DNA of 22,143 nt, taken from IMG/VR virus record IMGVR_UViG_2703718843_000010; one strand, given 5' to 3'. The notes beneath the pieces were generated by a model. It did not search any database and had not been told where the DNA came from. It worked only from the letters and a program-made list of their open reading frames with translations. Position numbers and translations under genes: made by a program. Below, in pieces: positions 2,939 through 9,550 of this stretch. The stretch comes from a virus (Duplodnaviria; Heunggongvirae; Uroviricota; Caudoviricetes). Within the stretch, counting starts at the first letter, position 1; each line of letters opens with the position of its first letter.

Positions 2939-3151
2939 ATGACCAGACGTGAACAATATAGTTTCATTTTGCATGTTCTTTTACCTGCTATCGAAAATGA
3001 AGGGTTAACCATTAAAACCCGCCGTGATGGTGAGTTAACCCTTTCTGCCAGTGGGTCTGTAGCAACCAATTTTATAAGCAATCTGCGCCAGCACTGCATT
3101 GAAGAATTGCAGCGCCCTTCTATTCCAGCTTCCCATTACGGAGTCCTATAA
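2939..3151 (+). CDS. Hypothetical small protein (70 aa) immediately upstream of dam
   Basis: ATG at 2939 with GGAGG at 8-nt spacing; its stop (3149-3151) is one base before the dam ATG. Confidence 0.5.
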   Translation: MTRREQYSFILHVLLPAIENEGLTIKTRRDGELTLSASGSVATNFISNLRQHCIEELQRPSIPASHYGVL

Positions 3152-3152
3152 A

Positions 3153-4124
3153 ATGATCCGCCCGTTCATCAAATGGGCAGGGGGTAAAACCCGTGTCCTC
3201 CCTGACCTGCTGCCGCATCTTCCTAAAGTCGACTGCCTGATCGAACCATTCGTAGGCGGTGCATCGGTATTTCTGGCGACTGAATACCGCCGCTATGTGC
3301 TGGCTGATATCAACCCAGATCTTATTAACCTGTATCGGGAAGTCACCCGTTACCCGGACTTAGTGATCGATGCGGCCCGCGAACTGTTCAACAGTAAGAA
3401 CAACCCGCAGGGATACAACGAAGTCCGCGCCGCGTTCAATAAGCAGGTGGGTACGGTAAAAAGCGGTGGGTTGCGTTATGGCGCTGAAATGGCGTGCATT
3501 ATGCGCGCTGCTCAATTCCTGTATCTGAATCGCCACGGTTATAACGGCTTATGCCGATACAGCCGGAAGACCGGCTTTAACGTGCCGTTTGGCAAGTATA
3601 AGAGCGTCTACTTTCCTGAAAATGAAATCCGCCTGTTTGCCGAAAAGGCCAACGATACAAAGGCAATATTTCTTTGCGCGCCGTTCCAGCGTTCTCTACA
3701 AGTCGTCACGGGTGGCGATGTTCTTGTTTACTGCGATCCGCCTTACCTGCCTGAAAGCAAAACAGCCGATTTTACCCAATACCACACCGAACCATTCACG
3801 GAAGACAACCACCGCCAGTTAGTCCAGGCACTGCTGGAAGTTAACCGTAAGCATGGCGTGAAGGTCGTCATTTCCAACAGCGACACCGAAGCCACCCGCG
3901 TGATTTATCAGCCCTTCAAGATGCACGAAATCAGCGTGCAACGTTCCGTCAGCACTGACAAAGACAACCGCCAGAAGGCCAAAGAAGTGATCGGCGTGCT
4001 GCCTGTCTGCGACTGCTGCGGGCGTTACGGCGGCGGTTGCCCTGATTGTGGCGCCGTGATGGGTGATGCGACTTACAACGCGATGGTTGCGGCGGGCACG
4101 TTTGACGATCTGGAGGCTTTTTAA
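3153..4124 (+). CDS. dam: DNA adenine methyltransferase, Dam family (D12 class, likely GATC), with a C-terminal cysteine-cluster extension
   Basis: N-terminal FIKWAGGK, SAM-binding EPFVGGASVFL and catalytic DPPY, with overall collinearity to E. coli Dam as remembered. Extra tail VCDCCGRYGGGCPDCG. ATG at 3153 with GGAG upstream. Confidence 0.9.
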   Translation: MIRPFIKWAGGKTRVLPDLLPHLPKVDCLIEPFVGGASVFLATEYRRYVLADINPDLINLYREVTRYPDLVIDAARELFNSKNNPQGYNEVRAAFNKQVGTVKSGGLRYGAEMACIMRAAQFLYLNRHGYNGLCRYSRKTGFNVPFGKYKSVYFPENEIRLFAEKANDTKAIFLCAPFQRSLQVVTGGDVLVYCDPPYLPESKTADFTQYHTEPFTEDNHRQLVQALLEVNRKHGVKVVISNSDTEATRVIYQPFKMHEISVQRSVSTDKDNRQKAKEVIGVLPVCDCCGRYGGGCPDCGAVMGDATYNAMVAAGTFDDLEAF

Positions 4125-4444
4125 TGGCAAAAATCTATATCGCTGGCCCGATGAGCGGTTTGCCTGGATTCAATCGGCAGGCTTTTAACCGTGCAGCCGG
4201 GCACGTAGTGCGACGCGGAAACGTTGCCCTTAATCCGGCGATTTTGCCGGATGGATTAGAGCAGGCGGAATACATGGATATTTGCTTCGCCATGTTGCGT
4301 TGTGCTGACGGGATCTTCTTGCTGGATGGCTGGCAGCAGTCTGCCGGAGCTAAGGCAGAGCACGCGCTTGCTGAAAAGCTGGGTTTAGAAATTCAGTACC
4401 AAGTAATCGATCGGTGTAGCCGAAAGGCGGAGGGGCAGCAGTGA
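4124..4444 (+). CDS. DUF4406-like protein (nucleoside 2-deoxyribosyltransferase-like fold)
   Basis: 106 aa beginning MAKIYIAGPMSG...NPAILP, the hallmark N-terminus of the DUF4406 family. ATG overlaps the dam stop (TAATG). Confidence 0.75.
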   Translation: MAKIYIAGPMSGLPGFNRQAFNRAAGHVVRRGNVALNPAILPDGLEQAEYMDICFAMLRCADGIFLLDGWQQSAGAKAEHALAEKLGLEIQYQVIDRCSRKAEGQQ

Positions 4445-5355
4445 CCGCCTACTACAACGAAATCGACCCCTTCGCCGCGCAATACCTGCGCAACCTCATT
4501 GATGCCGGGCTTATCGCTTCCGGTGTTGTCGATACTCGTTCCGTTGAGGATGTAACCCCAAATGACCTTAAAGGATTCTCACAAGTCCACCTGTTTGCAG
4601 GTTTTGGAGGCTGGCCCCGTGCTTTGCGCGTCGCAGGATGGCCGGACGACCGCCCAGTATGGACAGCAAGTTGCCCATGCCAACCTTTCAGCCAGGCAGG
4701 CGAAGGAAAACAATTTGATGATGAGCGGCACCTATGGCCCGCCGTTCATTGGCTTGCAGGCCAGCAACGCCCTGTCGTTATATTTGGCGAACAGTCTTCA
4801 AGCAAAGATGCAGAAGTCTGGATCGACCTTGTACAAACTGACATGGAAAGTTTGGGCTATGCCTTCGGGGCGTCGGCGTTTCCGTCTGCGGGCGTCGGTG
4901 CGCCGCACATCCGGGAGCGTACTTACTGGCTGGCCGACTCCAACCGCGAGCAATACGAAGAACGCTTATCAGGATGCCGAGAAGGTGATCGCCAGGAAGC
5001 TGGCTGGTCGGCAGTCGAACTTACAGGGCTTTGCTTGTCTTGCGGGTTGGCCCACCCCTGCGGCGAGGGATGGAAAGGGCGGGTATCAGGGAGGAAGGAT
5101 GCGGCACGGGAAGCTGTCAACGGATACGCTGGATGTGACAGCGCAGATAGCAGGCCCGGCCCGGTTAACGGATTCTGGGGATCTGCTGACTGGCTCCTTT
5201 GCAGAGATGGAAAGTGGAGGCCAGTTAAACCCGGCCTTAAGCCTCTGGTTGATGGGGTTCCCTCCAGAGTGGGAAAACTACGCGCCAGCGGAAACGCCGT
5301 AAATATCTATGCAGCCGCAACTTTCTTAAAAGCCTACATGGAGATCGCGCAATGA
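4441..5355 (+). CDS. DNA cytosine-5 methyltransferase (phage-type); a second long overlapping frame is described in findings
   Basis: GTG start overlapping the upstream stop (GTGA). Motif I FAGFGG, motif IV PCQPFSQAG, GEQ-type motif VI region, motif VIII GAPHIRERTYWLA, motif X GNAVN...FLKAY. Stop overlaps the gene A ATG. Confidence 0.8.
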   Translation: MTAYYNEIDPFAAQYLRNLIDAGLIASGVVDTRSVEDVTPNDLKGFSQVHLFAGFGGWPRALRVAGWPDDRPVWTASCPCQPFSQAGEGKQFDDERHLWPAVHWLAGQQRPVVIFGEQSSSKDAEVWIDLVQTDMESLGYAFGASAFPSAGVGAPHIRERTYWLADSNREQYEERLSGCREGDRQEAGWSAVELTGLCLSCGLAHPCGEGWKGRVSGRKDAAREAVNGYAGCDSADSRPGPVNGFWGSADWLLCRDGKWRPVKPGLKPLVDGVPSRVGKLRASGNAVNIYAAATFLKAYMEIAQ

Positions 5356-7757
5356 CCACGGCAACCCGTGGCCGTCGCGCCCCTTCTCCACCTCCACCGT
5401 ATCCGGGTAGCACTGACAATGCTATCCCTTACGCTTATGGCGGGAACAAACCATACCAGCCTATTGGCGTTGATGTAGCGCCGGGGCTGGATGGTTTCGA
5501 CTATCTCACGCCGGACGGCACGCGTAAGCATATTGCGTTCAGTGAACTGGTAGCGGAAGACGAAAAGCCGGAGCGCAGCAAGCTGCTGCGTCGCCGCCTG
5601 GCTTCTCTTCCGCAGTATATCCGCCGCCACTTTGCCGCGAAGCTGGATGCACTGGACGCGAAAGACCGCAAAGCGGCAGATCACTGGCTGGTTAATACAT
5701 TTGAGCGCCACGTATTAACGCGTATTGATAGCGTGAACAGTGTTTACCAGCCTGACACTGTGATGCCCGGCATTCTGCTGCCAATCCGCGATCAGCTTTT
5801 CCGTATGCTCTGGGCAGGGAAGAAAGAGTTAAAAAGACTGGCTTATACGCTTGCCGATATCTTTACGAGCGAGTTTATACGCGAGTCCGATCACCAGTTG
5901 GCACGCACCGGAGATCCTGAGTTCGCGGCGCTTTCTGGCTATGGCCGTATTGCGTCGCTGGCGGTGCATCTGAAAACGCCGATCCCTGGCTGGACGGCGT
6001 ATTGCAATGAAGAACTGGAAGCGGAGGACGCGTTACGCGCGGTTCTTCGCCTTGAGTCACCGCAGTGGTGGTTAAACCGCCTGCGCCGTATCCATGCCCG
6101 GTGGCGTGAGCATTTGATGATCGCAGCGGGATACGTCCAGAAAAAATCTTCCCCATACAGTAGCGCCCCGTGCCTTACGGAGTGGTTGGCCCAGAAAAAG
6201 GCTAACCGTGAATACCTTAAGGCTATGGAACTGGAAGACCAGGACACGGGCGAACGCATTTCACTGATCGATAAAGTCGCCGGTAGTGTTGCCAATCCGG
6301 CCAACCGTCGCCGCGAACTCATGACGAGAATGCGCGGATTTGAAGATCTGGCGAAGCTGGAAGGGCTGGCCGGTGACTTCTACACGCTAACAGCACCTTC
6401 CCGTTACCACTCCATGCAGCATAACGGGCGCCGCAATAATAAATACTGTGGCGCGTCGCCGCGCGAGACGCAGCAATATCTTTGCAAAGTCTGGGCGAGA
6501 ACCCGCGCAGCGTGGAAGAGAAAAGGGATCCGCGTCTTTGGTTTCCGCGTGGTCGAACCGCACCACGATGCAACGCCACACTGGCATTTACTTCTTTTTA
6601 TGCGCCCGGAATGCGTCGAGCAGGCGCGCGAAATCTTCCGTAAATATGCCCTGAAAGAAGACGGCAACGAACCGGGAGCGCAGGAAAACCGCTTTCAGGT
6701 TGTGCCGATCGACGATGCCCACGGCAGCGCAACCGGCTACATAGCGAAATACATTTCGAAGAATATCGACGGCTTCGCGCTGGATGGTGAGAAGGACGAC
6801 GAAACCGGGGAAGACCTGAAAGAAATGTCACTCCGCGTTAGCGCGTGGGCATCGCGCTGGGCTATTCGTCAGTTTCAGCAGATCGGCGGTGCGCCGGTCA
6901 CGGTATATCGCGAACTTCGCCGCCTGGGCGATCGCGAACTGGTGTTACACCCTGAACTGGAAACCGCCCGGCAGGCCGCTAACGGTGGCGAATGGGATAA
7001 CTACGTATTAGCCCAGGGTGGACCGTTGGTTGAGCGCGATAAGCTGCGCATCCGTCTGAATTATGAAACCACTGAAAACGGCAACGCCTACGGCGATAAC
7101 GTCCAGCGAATCACTGGTATTTACTGCCCGATTACGGGCAATGACTCTTTGATCTTCACCCGCACCACTCAATACAAAATCGTGCCGAAGCGCCAGAGCG
7201 CTGACGGTGTGGCCGTTGACGTTGGTTTTTCAGGCGGCAACGCCGCCCCTCGGAGTTCTGTCAATAACTGTACGCGGGATCCCGCGGCAGGTGCTGACGG
7301 TGTAGAACATGCCGCCAGCGAAGCTACAGGGCAGTCAGAAATGACTGAGCCAGCTGAGGGCGTGACGGTGAATTTTGATGCGCTTTCACGGCAGGAAAAG
7401 CGAGAATTGGCGCAGCGGCTCAGTGCCGATGTGCGAAGTAAGCGTAAAAAACGGCCACCGGATAGGGAAGACAGGGCCGGGCTGTCCGTGAAAGAGCAGC
7501 AGATCAGTGAACTGCTGGCGCTGCGTGGGATTGATGCCAGCGCCGGAATGGTCAGATCGATGATGGCCGGTGCGTCAGTGGCGTGCGGCGATCTTGTTAT
7601 GACCGTGCAGGACGGGCGGCTGGTGTCGCGCAATCGCGCCGCGTCGGGGATAGGTAAATTAGCAACTGAAAAAATGGCAGTTAAGAAAAAATCTGATGAA
7701 CTTCTCAATCGCTGGAAAGTGGCTGTAAAAATTAACAGGGGTAAGTTGACAAATTGA
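5352..7757 (+). CDS. A: Replication initiation protein A (rolling-circle HUH endonuclease), P2 gpA-like
   Basis: 801 aa with HUH-type motif EPHHDATPHWHLLLF and active-site tyrosine motif GYIAKYISKNIDG; collinear with remembered P2 A. Confidence 0.95.
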   Translation: MTTATRGRRAPSPPPPYPGSTDNAIPYAYGGNKPYQPIGVDVAPGLDGFDYLTPDGTRKHIAFSELVAEDEKPERSKLLRRRLASLPQYIRRHFAAKLDALDAKDRKAADHWLVNTFERHVLTRIDSVNSVYQPDTVMPGILLPIRDQLFRMLWAGKKELKRLAYTLADIFTSEFIRESDHQLARTGDPEFAALSGYGRIASLAVHLKTPIPGWTAYCNEELEAEDALRAVLRLESPQWWLNRLRRIHARWREHLMIAAGYVQKKSSPYSSAPCLTEWLAQKKANREYLKAMELEDQDTGERISLIDKVAGSVANPANRRRELMTRMRGFEDLAKLEGLAGDFYTLTAPSRYHSMQHNGRRNNKYCGASPRETQQYLCKVWARTRAAWKRKGIRVFGFRVVEPHHDATPHWHLLLFMRPECVEQAREIFRKYALKEDGNEPGAQENRFQVVPIDDAHGSATGYIAKYISKNIDGFALDGEKDDETGEDLKEMSLRVSAWASRWAIRQFQQIGGAPVTVYRELRRLGDRELVLHPELETARQAANGGEWDNYVLAQGGPLVERDKLRIRLNYETTENGNAYGDNVQRITGIYCPITGNDSLIFTRTTQYKIVPKRQSADGVAVDVGFSGGNAAPRSSVNNCTRDPAAGADGVEHAASEATGQSEMTEPAEGVTVNFDALSRQEKRELAQRLSADVRSKRKKRPPDREDRAGLSVKEQQISELLALRGIDASAGMVRSMMAGASVACGDLVMTVQDGRLVSRNRAASGIGKLATEKMAVKKKSDELLNRWKVAVKINRGKLTN
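7233..7287. other. Candidate replication origin (nick-site region) inside gene A
   Basis: Hairpin GGCGG-CAACG-CCGCC, then CCTCGGAGTTCTGTCAATAACTG, then perfect palindrome CGCGGGATCCCGCG. Encodes the AAPRSSVNNC linker that I remember as the ori-containing part of P2 A. Confidence 0.35.
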
Positions 7758-7820: not shown

Positions 7821-8414
7821 ATGTCTAAGCAGCCTTTACCTTGGGACTTTCACCCACAATTAACTGAAGAGCGTTTAACAATTATTGCTAAAGAATTGTT
7901 AAGGGTCTTAAATGACACATATGCTCAACTTTCGACCACCTTGGATAACAACTATACACGTTCTACTTGTACTTTTGGTCGTCAATGGCAGTTACTTATT
8001 GATTTATGTTTGAGTGGACAGTACGACTGGCTTCATCTCACCAACGCTGGTTTAGACATCACTTTTACGATCGATACAATTCCTGTTCGTTTCTTCACTG
8101 ATGATCCGGCCAATCCTAAAAAGGATGGTTTTTATCGTCGAAATCCTGCTGATCAGCTTTTTGCTCCTGAGGTGGACATTCCCGTTTTACATCGCTTTGT
8201 TGTTGAGAAACCCGAATTTGAGGGTGAAGGCGCTAAAGTTCATTTCATTGGTTATAACGCTTTGGACGAAGAAGTATCTAAGTGGACGTACAACGATGAA
8301 CCAACAACAGCATTGTTGCACTCTACGGATGATACACCGCCAGAGTCTGTTAGAATTGAACTTGATGACATTCGCCCTTCTCGTCCCGAAAAGGAAGAAA
8401 AAGAGAGCGATTGA
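7821..8414 (+). CDS. Hypothetical protein (197 aa), first gene of the hotspot cassette; candidate effector or toxin
   Basis: ATG at 7821 with GGAG upstream. No motif I recognise; acidic, low-complexity C-terminal tail (PSRPEKEEKESD). AT-richer than the flanking phage genes. Confidence 0.6.
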   Translation: MSKQPLPWDFHPQLTEERLTIIAKELLRVLNDTYAQLSTTLDNNYTRSTCTFGRQWQLLIDLCLSGQYDWLHLTNAGLDITFTIDTIPVRFFTDDPANPKKDGFYRRNPADQLFAPEVDIPVLHRFVVEKPEFEGEGAKVHFIGYNALDEEVSKWTYNDEPTTALLHSTDDTPPESVRIELDDIRPSRPEKEEKESD

Positions 8415-8437: not shown

Positions 8438-9550
8438 GTGTTTAACGGTTCTAATTTAAGATTGGCTCGTCTGTATCACGAGCTATCACTGGAGCAAGTA
8501 GCTGAGCGGGTCGATAAGACCCGCCAGTATATTCAGCGGCTGGAATCCGGCACGGCTGTTCCAACACCCGAGCTTGCGAATAAATTAGCTGCCGTCTTGC
8601 TGGTGATGCCTCATTTTTTTGAAGAGCAATGGCAGTCTCCTGTAAATGAAGAGATCGTTCACTTCCGCAAGCGTAGTTCTACGAGAGTCGCCACAAAAAT
8701 GGCGACTCTCGCCAAAGCTGAGCTGTATCGACGACTTATTGAAATTTTTGAAGAGTATCTGGAGTTACCGCAAGTAAGATTTCCTGAACTGAAGGTGGAT
8801 ACTCAAGAGGATATCGAAAAAGCAGCGGAGAAGTGCCGGACTGATTGGGGGCTAGGTTTTGGGCCGATCGATAACATGACTCGTCTTGCTGAAAAGCTGG
8901 GAGCGTTTGTCACTTCTTTTGATTCTGTTTCTGACGATGTTGATGCTCTTTCTGTTCCTTTGAGCCGCCCATTTATCGTAAGGAATACAGCTAAAAAGTC
9001 ACCCTGCCGTCAGCGGTTTGATATCGCTCACGAGGTTGCACATTTAATTTTACATGAGGGTGTCTCTACTGGAGACAGGGCTACTGAGTCGCAGGCTAAC
9101 CGCTTCGCGTCTGCATTGCTTTTGCCAAGAACAGCTATGGCGAAATATTTTCCACGTCCGATTGGTGGTCGAATCGACTGGCAAGGTCTTAGCCAGTTTA
9201 AATTAACGTGGAAAGTGAGTAAGGCCGCGATCATTTATAGAGCACATCAACTTGGGCTTTTAACTGACGCTCAATACAAAACCGCCTTTTTTGGTCTCAA
9301 GCGAAAGGGGGAGGCTATTGATGAGAAAGAAGATTATTTGATCCCTTGTGAGAAGCCAGAACTATTCAGTAAAGCAATGAAATGCCTGTTAAATGATTTG
9401 TCCGTGGATATTGAAACATTAGCCCAGCGTTTGAGCATAACCCCTACGATGCTCGCAGAACTTGCTAATGATGACACTTTGGTTTCTGCGTCATGTGTGA
9501 ACTCTGAGAATGTAATTTCAATGTTTGCGTATCGGATGAAAACTGCTTAA
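8438..9550 (+). CDS. XRE-family HTH fused to ImmA/IrrE-type (M78, COG2856) zinc metallopeptidase, with an extra C-terminal region
   Basis: GTG start with AAGGTG at 5-nt spacing. N-terminal HTH LRLARLYHELSLEQVAERVDKTRQYIQRLESG; HExxH motif HEVAH encoded at 9029-9043 within the ImmA-like core; about 150 further residues after the core. Confidence 0.85.
   Translation: MFNGSNLRLARLYHELSLEQVAERVDKTRQYIQRLESGTAVPTPELANKLAAVLLVMPHFFEEQWQSPVNEEIVHFRKRSSTRVATKMATLAKAELYRRLIEIFEEYLELPQVRFPELKVDTQEDIEKAAEKCRTDWGLGFGPIDNMTRLAEKLGAFVTSFDSVSDDVDALSVPLSRPFIVRNTAKKSPCRQRFDIAHEVAHLILHEGVSTGDRATESQANRFASALLLPRTAMAKYFPRPIGGRIDWQGLSQFKLTWKVSKAAIIYRAHQLGLLTDAQYKTAFFGLKRKGEAIDEKEDYLIPCEKPELFSKAMKCLLNDLSVDIETLAQRLSITPTMLAELANDDTLVSASCVNSENVISMFAYRMKTA

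Follow-up and report, generated by a model that had tools for sequence, protein, structure and literature searches.

A cysteine-rich mini-domain shared by the Dam methyltransferases of P2-like prophages and RecE is a candidate docking handle for phage DNA enzymes

The DNA adenine methyltransferases Escherichia coli Dam, T4 Dam and DpnM share a catalytic core (PF02086, TIGR00571, the DPPY and FxGxG motifs, the GATC-contact residues and the fold) and end 0 to 11 residues past it, with no cysteine cluster. Here we analysed the Dam gene (dam) of a P2-like prophage (Peduoviridae) that accounts for the whole of a 22,143-nucleotide (nt) stretch of viral DNA, IMG/VR record IMGVR_UViG_2703718843_000010 (hereafter the window). 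Its product has the same core but continues for another 40 residues as a cysteine-rich tail. Two other described systems resemble parts of this tail. RecE, or exodeoxyribonuclease VIII, of Rac-like prophages is otherwise unlike Dam but contains the same module, four cysteines followed by GAVMGDATYxE(T/M)F, at approximately model positions 527-560, just N-terminal to its nuclease domain. The RecE copy lies inside the protein, between acidic low-complexity linkers, and is joined to a PD-(D/E)XK nuclease, whereas the Dam copy is C-terminal, and no Phe-terminated tip directly follows the RecE module. Bacterial single-stranded DNA (ssDNA)-binding protein (SSB), for its part, ends in the tip DFDDDIPF-COOH, and T7 gp2.5 and gp4 have acidic, Phe-terminated tails. 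The window Dam ends in TFDDLEAF-COOH, which is like the SSB tip in its acidic run, its C-terminal Phe with a free carboxylate and its F-D-D-x-x-x-F spacing. Unlike SSB, which binds ssDNA, Dam carries this tip on an enzyme, and the penultimate Pro of the Ile-Pro-Phe ending of SSB is absent from the window Dam (E-A-F), although some relatives end in EPF or NPIPL.

An earlier note on this DNA had proposed that Dam carries a C-terminal extension with a five-cysteine, metal-binding knuckle that could alter DNA targeting or mediate protein interaction. Homologue alignment confirmed the extension: 41 residues lie past the last aligned core position here compared with 11 in E. coli Dam, so that approximately 30 residues beyond the E. 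coli Dam end are a true addition. The tail consists of the 40 residues that follow the end of the core near residue 283, PVCDCCGRYGGGCPDCGAVMGDATYNAMVAAGTFDDLEAF. The peptide that the note had quoted, VLPVCDCC...LEAF, is correct to the letter, but it begins at nt 3996 (amino acid [aa] 282) and not at nt 4003. Its five Cys, at aa 286, 288, 289, 296 and 299 (nt 4008-4049), follow the pattern CxCC-x6-CxxC as described; only Cys 286, 289, 296 and 299 are invariant, however, and Cys288 is Gly in most homologues. Cysteine is concentrated in this part of the protein, with 5 residues in the 40-aa tail versus 5 in the 283-aa core. The gene and its parts are as follows.

3153-4124, + strand: dam, 323 codons plus a TAA stop, encoding a Dam-family N6-adenine DNA methyltransferase
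3153..4001, + strand: catalytic core, aa 1-283, with the FxGxG AdoMet motif, DPPY at 195-198 and the GATC-contact residues kept
4008..4049, + strand: Cys4 knuckle C286-x2-C289-x6-C296-P-D-C299, invariant across alignments, plus the nonconserved Cys288
4050..4094, + strand: conserved segment GAVMGDATYNAMVAA, aa 300-314, a predicted short helix that forms the portable module together with the knuckle
4095..4121, + strand: acidic tip GTFDDLEAF-COOH, aa 315-323, specific to Dam tails

Within the aa 300-314 segment, two Gly, a Thr and a Tyr are at least 90% conserved, and the AlphaFold2 (AF2) model of the whole Dam protein has a helix at 305-313. In this model the first CxxC lies in a hairpin bridge and the helix begins at the second CxxC, with a predicted local distance difference test (pLDDT) score of just 55-66; the last four residues score below 50, which suggests that the tip is disordered. 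With six acidic residues against one basic, the tail carries a net charge of -5. In the homologue tails described below, the mean net charge is -3.2 and 89% are net negative (85 tails), while the final 8 positions contain on average 1.9 acidic residues and 0.16 basic ones (116 homologues). The C-terminal residue is Phe in 53 of these 116 and Phe, Leu or Trp in 76, across otherwise divergent tail types. The Dam-specific part that follows the module thus comprises G-x-F-D, acidic residues and a C-terminal aromatic, with F-D-D-x-x-x-F-COOH as the tip motif in the window.

The core is, on sequence and model evidence, an ordinary GATC-type Dam methyltransferase, and methylation activity is predicted. 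The open reading frame (ORF) spans 3099..4124 (+), with the likely start at the ATG at 3153, giving a protein of 323 aa, and the TAA stop at 4122-4124. The protein matches Pfam PF02086 over aa 8-265 (212.6 bits; cutoff, 22) and TIGR00571 (272.6 bits; cutoff, 114.85). Its score against the host-Dam equivalog NF008152 (PRK10904), 278.6 bits, falls short of the cutoff of 441, which indicates a phage-clade Dam rather than an orthologue of the chromosomal enzyme. Residues 5-267 of the 278-aa E. coli Dam align to aa 3-282 with approximately 43% identity. D195-P-P-Y198 and P32-F-V-G35 of the FxGxG motif, aligned to E. coli Dam, are invariant in a 118-sequence alignment, and a phmmer alignment to 2G1P shows that K9, Y119, N120, L122, R124, P134 and Y138 (E. 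coli Dam numbering), which read GATC in the published Dam-DNA structures, are all identical. The AF2 model has a mean pLDDT of 84.5, mostly above 90 in the core, and superposes on the E. coli Dam structures (PDB 4RTN/2G1P) with a TM score of 0.92.

To place the tail among its relatives, we compared the 116 best full-length homologues, most of which are 305-335 aa long. The tail was present in the same frame in 85 of them, in the form C-x2-C-x(5-9)-C-x2-C; the spacer between the CxxC pairs is 7 residues in nearly all of these 85, compared with 6 in the window. Most of the remaining homologues carry other Cys-rich tails. The two Cys of the first pair and the C-P-D-C of the second were invariant both in 30 aligned Dam tails and in 36 modules from mixed protein contexts. 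The closest relative, the dam gene of Enterobacter phage phiT5282H, is 97% identical at the nt level and encodes an identical tail. Approximately 31 complete E. coli genomes carry a copy of dam at 95-99% identity, and a gpA homologue is found 0-2.5 kb downstream of dam in 28 of 28 tested genomic loci with a member of the clade and in five phage records. In a codon comparison of ten DNA sequences from different genera, the module had a pS of 0.69 and a pN of 0.165, a ratio of 0.24 compared with 0.61 for the preceding 60 core codons, and each Cys was encoded by both TGC and TGT across homologues. These data indicate that conservation acts at the protein level, ruling out both a conserved DNA element and an artefact of frameshifting. 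The possibility of a frameshift near nt 3990, raised in the earlier note, is also contradicted by the continuous frame, the identical phiT5282H tail and the 85 in-frame homologues. The note had further asked whether ordinary Dam homologues share the extension; they do within the clade of P2-like enterobacterial prophages, but host, T4 and DpnM Dam do not, and Dam likewise stops at the core in host-type genes of many Gammaproteobacteria and in jumbo Erwinia phages. The tail therefore typifies the Dam proteins of P2-like Enterobacterales prophages and is no peculiarity of this genome.

The same module occurs outside Dam. We searched 1.84 billion representative proteins with a tail-only profile using HMMER (E < 1e-3) and obtained 36 matches, Dam proteins among them; two, the top match P0123 and P0146, were discarded as unrelated Cys-rich repeat proteins. 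A word-index search of proteins with just the 46-residue tail as query recovered nothing beyond two gene-call fragments. The carriers include RecE/exonuclease VIII-type proteins with the Pfam Exonuc_VIII N terminus, whose C terminus is a DUF3799 PD-(D/E)XK nuclease, an Rv2179c-like 3'-5' exonuclease or no nuclease at all, as well as fusions of the RecE N terminus to a DnaQ-like exonuclease (P0129, P0130 and P0136). Small proteins of 79-192 aa also carry the module, at their C terminus, and are encoded beside RecT, RdgC, Kil or Mu Gam in the early recombination regions of lambdoid phages. The unit common to these proteins is CxxCGxxGGGxCPDCG[PA]VMGDATYx[EA][MT]F. Consistent with this, Dam aa 285-310 matched positions 527-553 of the NCBIfam RecE model NF007259 (E = 3e-5; 22 bits; cutoff, 1269); because this match is a local one of only 26 residues, it identifies a module common to both proteins and does not make Dam a RecE. 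The Dam tail also matched two PHROG exonuclease families, and a tblastn search of phages with the RecE-type module recovered both the recE genes of Rac-like phages and P2-like dam genes. In the RecE of phage Rac-SA53, residue 541 is the first of the module, which has a long acidic low-complexity linker on either side and precedes the nuclease domain. The Dam and RecE modules have the same peptide but differ at most third codon positions, which argues that the sharing is old and has been maintained by selection. The Cys4 knuckle and the GxVMGDATYxxM helix together form a portable mini-domain on which selection acts as protein.

The module falls in no Pfam family, and our literature search found no description of it or of the tail. 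The module and its spread over Dam, RecE and other early phage proteins appear to be undescribed, while the sequences themselves are public and annotated simply as Dam. Six-frame hidden Markov model (HMM) scans found one module copy per locus and no second copy in the window. As a separate observation, other carriers (P0135 and P0137, both RecE-like proteins without a nuclease domain, and the three DnaQ-like fusions above) provide further acidic, Phe-terminated ends, ...DDEHMPDF-COOH and ...NQADF-COOH, and SSB-tip-like C termini may be common among these early phage proteins.

The four Cys (C286, C289, C296 and C299) match the ligand pattern of a Cys4 zinc ribbon, two CxxC knuckles, and this pattern is conserved in homologues. 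From the invariant CxxCG...CPDCG signature, we infer that they bind one zinc ion and that this shapes the module of approximately 30 residues. As a sequence pattern, the small metal-binding knuckle of the earlier note is well founded, with four invariant Cys, an invariant Pro-Asp and purifying selection. No curated zinc-ribbon family matched above its threshold; the best sub-threshold match was to the TFIIB ribbon, with an E value of 6.5e-4, in 17 of the 36 members, and a sequence search of the PDB returned nothing below E 0.03. The N-terminal 15-residue Cys4 ribbon of MtrI from Methanosarcina (PDB 9QTR chain i), CEACGRESDTKYCNDCGKVM, has nearly the same pattern as the tail. This ribbon binds zinc by inductively coupled plasma mass spectrometry, and MtrI is a small protein that docks onto an enzyme complex (PMC12774963). 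The likeness is not significant (E about 0.1) and offers a precedent for the pattern rather than homology. The CPxCG motif has itself been described as a zinc finger (PMC2253796). Like the tail, minimal Cys4 ribbons such as MtrI and the haloarchaeal Brz-type CPxCG proteins have two CxxC(G) knuckles, 6-8 residues apart; the GDATYxxM helix, in contrast, belongs to the phage module only and is not found in such ribbons or in CPxCG-type fingers.

Temperate phages of Enterobacterales attach the mini-domain to several early-expressed DNA-metabolism proteins, namely Dam in P2-like phages and RecE/exonuclease VIII, the DnaQ-like fusions and the small proteins of unknown function in lambdoid recombination regions. 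We propose that the tail acts as a handle, stabilised by zinc, through which a shared partner, probably of host origin, keeps Dam at phage DNA that is being replicated or recombined; we assign this reading a probability of roughly 45%. In this proposal, the four Cys would hold one zinc ion and so keep the module in shape, and the module and the acidic Phe-terminated tip would together act as the docking handle. By tethering the enzyme to a common, probably host-encoded, partner at sites of phage replication and recombination, the handle could ensure prompt methylation of newly made phage DNA while leaving the methylated sequence unchanged. A speculative candidate for the target would be the pockets that normally bind the SSB C terminus, because FDDLEAF resembles DFDDDIPF. 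In support of docking, the acidic tail and the acidic linkers of RecE point to a docking mini-domain rather than a basic DNA-binding finger, and a terminal aromatic is kept across divergent Dam tail types. A broader version, in which the Cys4 plus GDATYxxM unit is an undescribed docking domain that recruits Dam, RecE, the DnaQ-like exonuclease and orphan proteins to a single hub of the host, at the replication fork or the site of recombination, reinforced in Dam by an acidic Phe tip that mimics the SSB tail, is possible but doubtful.

Several points weigh against this proposal. Both the zinc and the partner are things that we infer, the former from sequence. AF2 modelled the tail with moderate to low confidence (pLDDT of 66, 54 and 62 in context and 62 for the module alone), so its modelled fold is tentative. 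The likeness to the SSB tip is only partial, given the missing Pro in the window and the small-protein and RecE modules that have no such tip. In some lineages the tail has been lost, truncated or swapped for unrelated Cys-rich or 'WxGFDP' tails, which suggests that catalysis, and perhaps the phage, can do without it. Finally, every carrier acts on DNA, so that a nucleic-acid role is conceivable. Among specific alternatives for what the tail might serve, gpA as the partner was set aside since tail type does not covary with gpA, and a co-encoded partner was rejected on the basis of the single module copy per locus in the six-frame scans. A conserved DNA element was likewise rejected, as synonymous sites are free to vary, and inspection for a beta-clamp-binding motif revealed no pattern like QL[SD]LF.

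A nucleic-acid-binding zinc finger would give Dam an extra grip on DNA or ssDNA, with more processivity or a bias toward replication and recombination intermediates, and would assist RecE and the exonuclease fusions in engaging DNA ends. This would suit the fact that all module carriers of known function are DNA enzymes. An Arg also follows the first CxxCG in most Dam tails (30-sequence tail alignment), but RecE modules have Gln in its place and acidic linkers on either side. Zinc ribbons often contact nucleic acids, and the weak Pfam matches of the module are to TFIIB-type and rubredoxin-like ribbons; against this, the window tail has its net charge of -5 and a single basic residue, nearly nine in ten of the 85 tails are also net negative, the sole conserved aromatic is one Tyr and the GATC-contact residues of the core are unchanged. 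We therefore regard a DNA-reading finger as unlikely and favour a zinc-stabilised protein-docking module. The altered DNA targeting suggested in the earlier note is disfavoured by the same charge, the poly-acidic RecE linkers and the unchanged core contacts, and a protein-interaction role would fit better. A different use of the acidic end is suggested by SSB, T7 gp2.5 and T4 gp32, whose acidic tails fold back as DNA mimics. With this precedent among phage DNA-binding proteins, the Phe-terminated end of Dam, which is acidic and disordered, might fold into the DNA-binding cleft and hold the enzyme inactive until displaced, the knuckle serving as a structural hinge. However, AF2 gives no confident docking between tail and core, and no such cleft is shared by the other carriers, in which the module lies within RecE or on small proteins of unrelated kinds. 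Tail variants, moreover, vary greatly in length and sequence. Autoinhibition of this kind seems improbable to a similar degree.

It is considerably less likely that the knuckle binds iron, or senses redox state or metal, and thereby switches the activity or stability of the enzyme. Its CxxCG / CPxCG signature is the same as that of rubredoxins, and weak matches to rubredoxin-like ribbon families and to one rubredoxin chain were obtained, but all matches lie far under the family thresholds. In addition, the spacer of just 6-7 residues is Gly-rich and lacks the rubredoxin aromatic core, and the nearest experimentally tested look-alike, MtrI, binds zinc. We give the least credence to a tail with no function of its own, whether it reflects a sequencing error or frameshift, a relic of a mosaic recombination joint that is still translated, or a conserved DNA or RNA element translated by chance. 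Such an origin could be read into the mosaic boundary with phage SEN5, which falls inside the knuckle, the decayed tails of several lineages and the PGAP annotation of some E. coli genomes, where the intact gene is split into two pseudogene pieces. The ORF is continuous both here and in the 'pseudogene' E. coli copy, however, and the near-saturated synonymous sites with amino acids kept (pS 0.69, pN 0.165), the shared peptide of RecE and Dam modules with most third positions different and the conservation of the module in unrelated protein contexts all speak for a functional protein segment. The codon analysis largely refutes this explanation.

Beyond the module itself, the C terminus of this Dam clade is a diversification zone. 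When dam is compared with that of phage SEN5, the nt match ends inside the knuckle, at nt 884 of 971, and the SEN5 tail is different and has 10 Cys, yet the SEN5 gpA is 94% identical to that of the window. A tail swapped as a unit next to so similar a gpA indicates a separable module and makes gpA an unlikely partner. Decayed tails, in which an out-of-frame module remnant follows a premature stop, the knuckle has been deleted internally or the protein ends after the first CxxC, were seen mostly in genomes of insect and plant symbionts and in degraded prophages (loci L021 4827-4925, L020 4001-4840, L023, L013 and L010 2940-3794). Replacement tails share the motif aromatic-x-G-[FVL]-D-[PLM]-A-x-G, as in LFMGFDPAASGADYSVV; this replacement and variant group comprises the proteins P0073, P0088, P0102, P0103, P0111, P0117, P0086 and P0015, the loci L017 and L019 and phage Cartapus (L004 2489-3346), and L019 joins the Cys4 module to this motif. 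Further variants contain 8-10 Cys (the SEN4/5 type) or end in ...WESEENPIPL. The tail also misleads automated annotation: in some E. coli genomes, RefSeq/PGAP splits an intact, tailed dam of 323 codons into two pseudogene pieces, one with a 'missing C-terminus' and one partial; in one example, E. coli NZ_LT883142.1 (L089 2501-3472; also H111 and H112), the ORF is continuous. Such calls are apparently an annotation artefact caused by the tail, with evidence that aligns to the core and the tail separately.

In the window, dam is part of an early region with the following order.

Minus strand, first in the prophage gene order: integrase and repressor
Between the repressor and dam: Cox, then small early genes
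4121..4127, + strand: TAATG stop/start overlap from dam to the DUF4406 gene, read from the sequence, with the PF14359 match downstream
4124-4444, + strand: DUF4406 / nucleoside 2-deoxyribosyltransferase-like gene (PF14359, phrog_355)
4441-5355, + strand: C5-cytosine methylase-like gene
5352-7757: gpA replication endonuclease
Downstream of gpA: a defence hotspot, then portal, terminase, capsid and tail genes

The DUF4406 gene is translationally coupled to dam through the TAATG and is followed by the C5 methylase gene, so that three DNA- or nucleotide-modification genes lie in a row directly upstream of gpA. Both phiT5282H, the closest phage, and locus L007 lack this cargo. Between gpA and the portal gene, the variable hotspot contains an RmrT/RmrA defence pair (7821-8411 [+] and 8438-9550 [+]), identified by PADLOC model matches with E values of 7.5e-92 for RmrT and 2.8e-204 for RmrA; RmrA has a helix-turn-helix (HTH) and an M78/IrrE-like peptidase domain.

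The C5-cytosine methylase-like gene, which has all the usual motifs in its own frame (frame A), also holds a 246-codon ORF in the +1 frame at 4562-5302 (+). This +1 ORF is conserved in 215 phage records at 30-73% aa identity. It was in the +1 frame relative to the annotated methylase coding sequence in all seven cases checked: the window and L002 5000-5989, L090 1368-2303, L091 1368-2294, L092 1056-2216, L093 1074-2096 and L094 1038-2030, which span enterobacterial P2-like phages and phages of Pseudomonas, Vibrio, Rhodobacter, Klebsiella and Edwardsiella. In these seven the +1 frame is open for 248-355 codons, versus 44-85 for the +2 frame. Synonymous-codon shuffles reached the observed +1 length in 0/5000 trials for the window and in 67/5000, 43/5000, 1/5000, 158/2000, 0/2000 and 6/2000 for the others. 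The +1 products have the motifs GSTLYKLTWK, GWPTPxAxD and QLNPxHSRWLMGLPPEW in common, and between methylase motifs VIII and X, where frame A varies, the +1 frame is the better conserved. The +1 frame also carries a motif-IX-like WLMGFPPEW. Thousands of database proteins correspond to the +1 frame, all without a Pfam domain, and our literature search found nothing on the +1-frame ORF. Candidate explanations are a long same-strand overlapping gene, a frameshift-dependent product and a two-subunit methylase. This ORF may merit more attention than the Dam tail.

In annotation and in general treatment, a prophage Dam methylase usually counts as a copy of the host enzyme. A selected and exchangeable tail across the clade suggests that phages control where and with whom their methylase works and not only what it methylates. 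The presence of the module in RecE, which is widely used in recombineering, provides a testable handle on the part of that protein listed as of 'unknown function', and the module may reveal a host factor common to several phage DNA enzymes. If the common-hub reading is true, it would explain the role of the long-enigmatic N-terminal region of RecE and would represent a new phage-host interaction motif.

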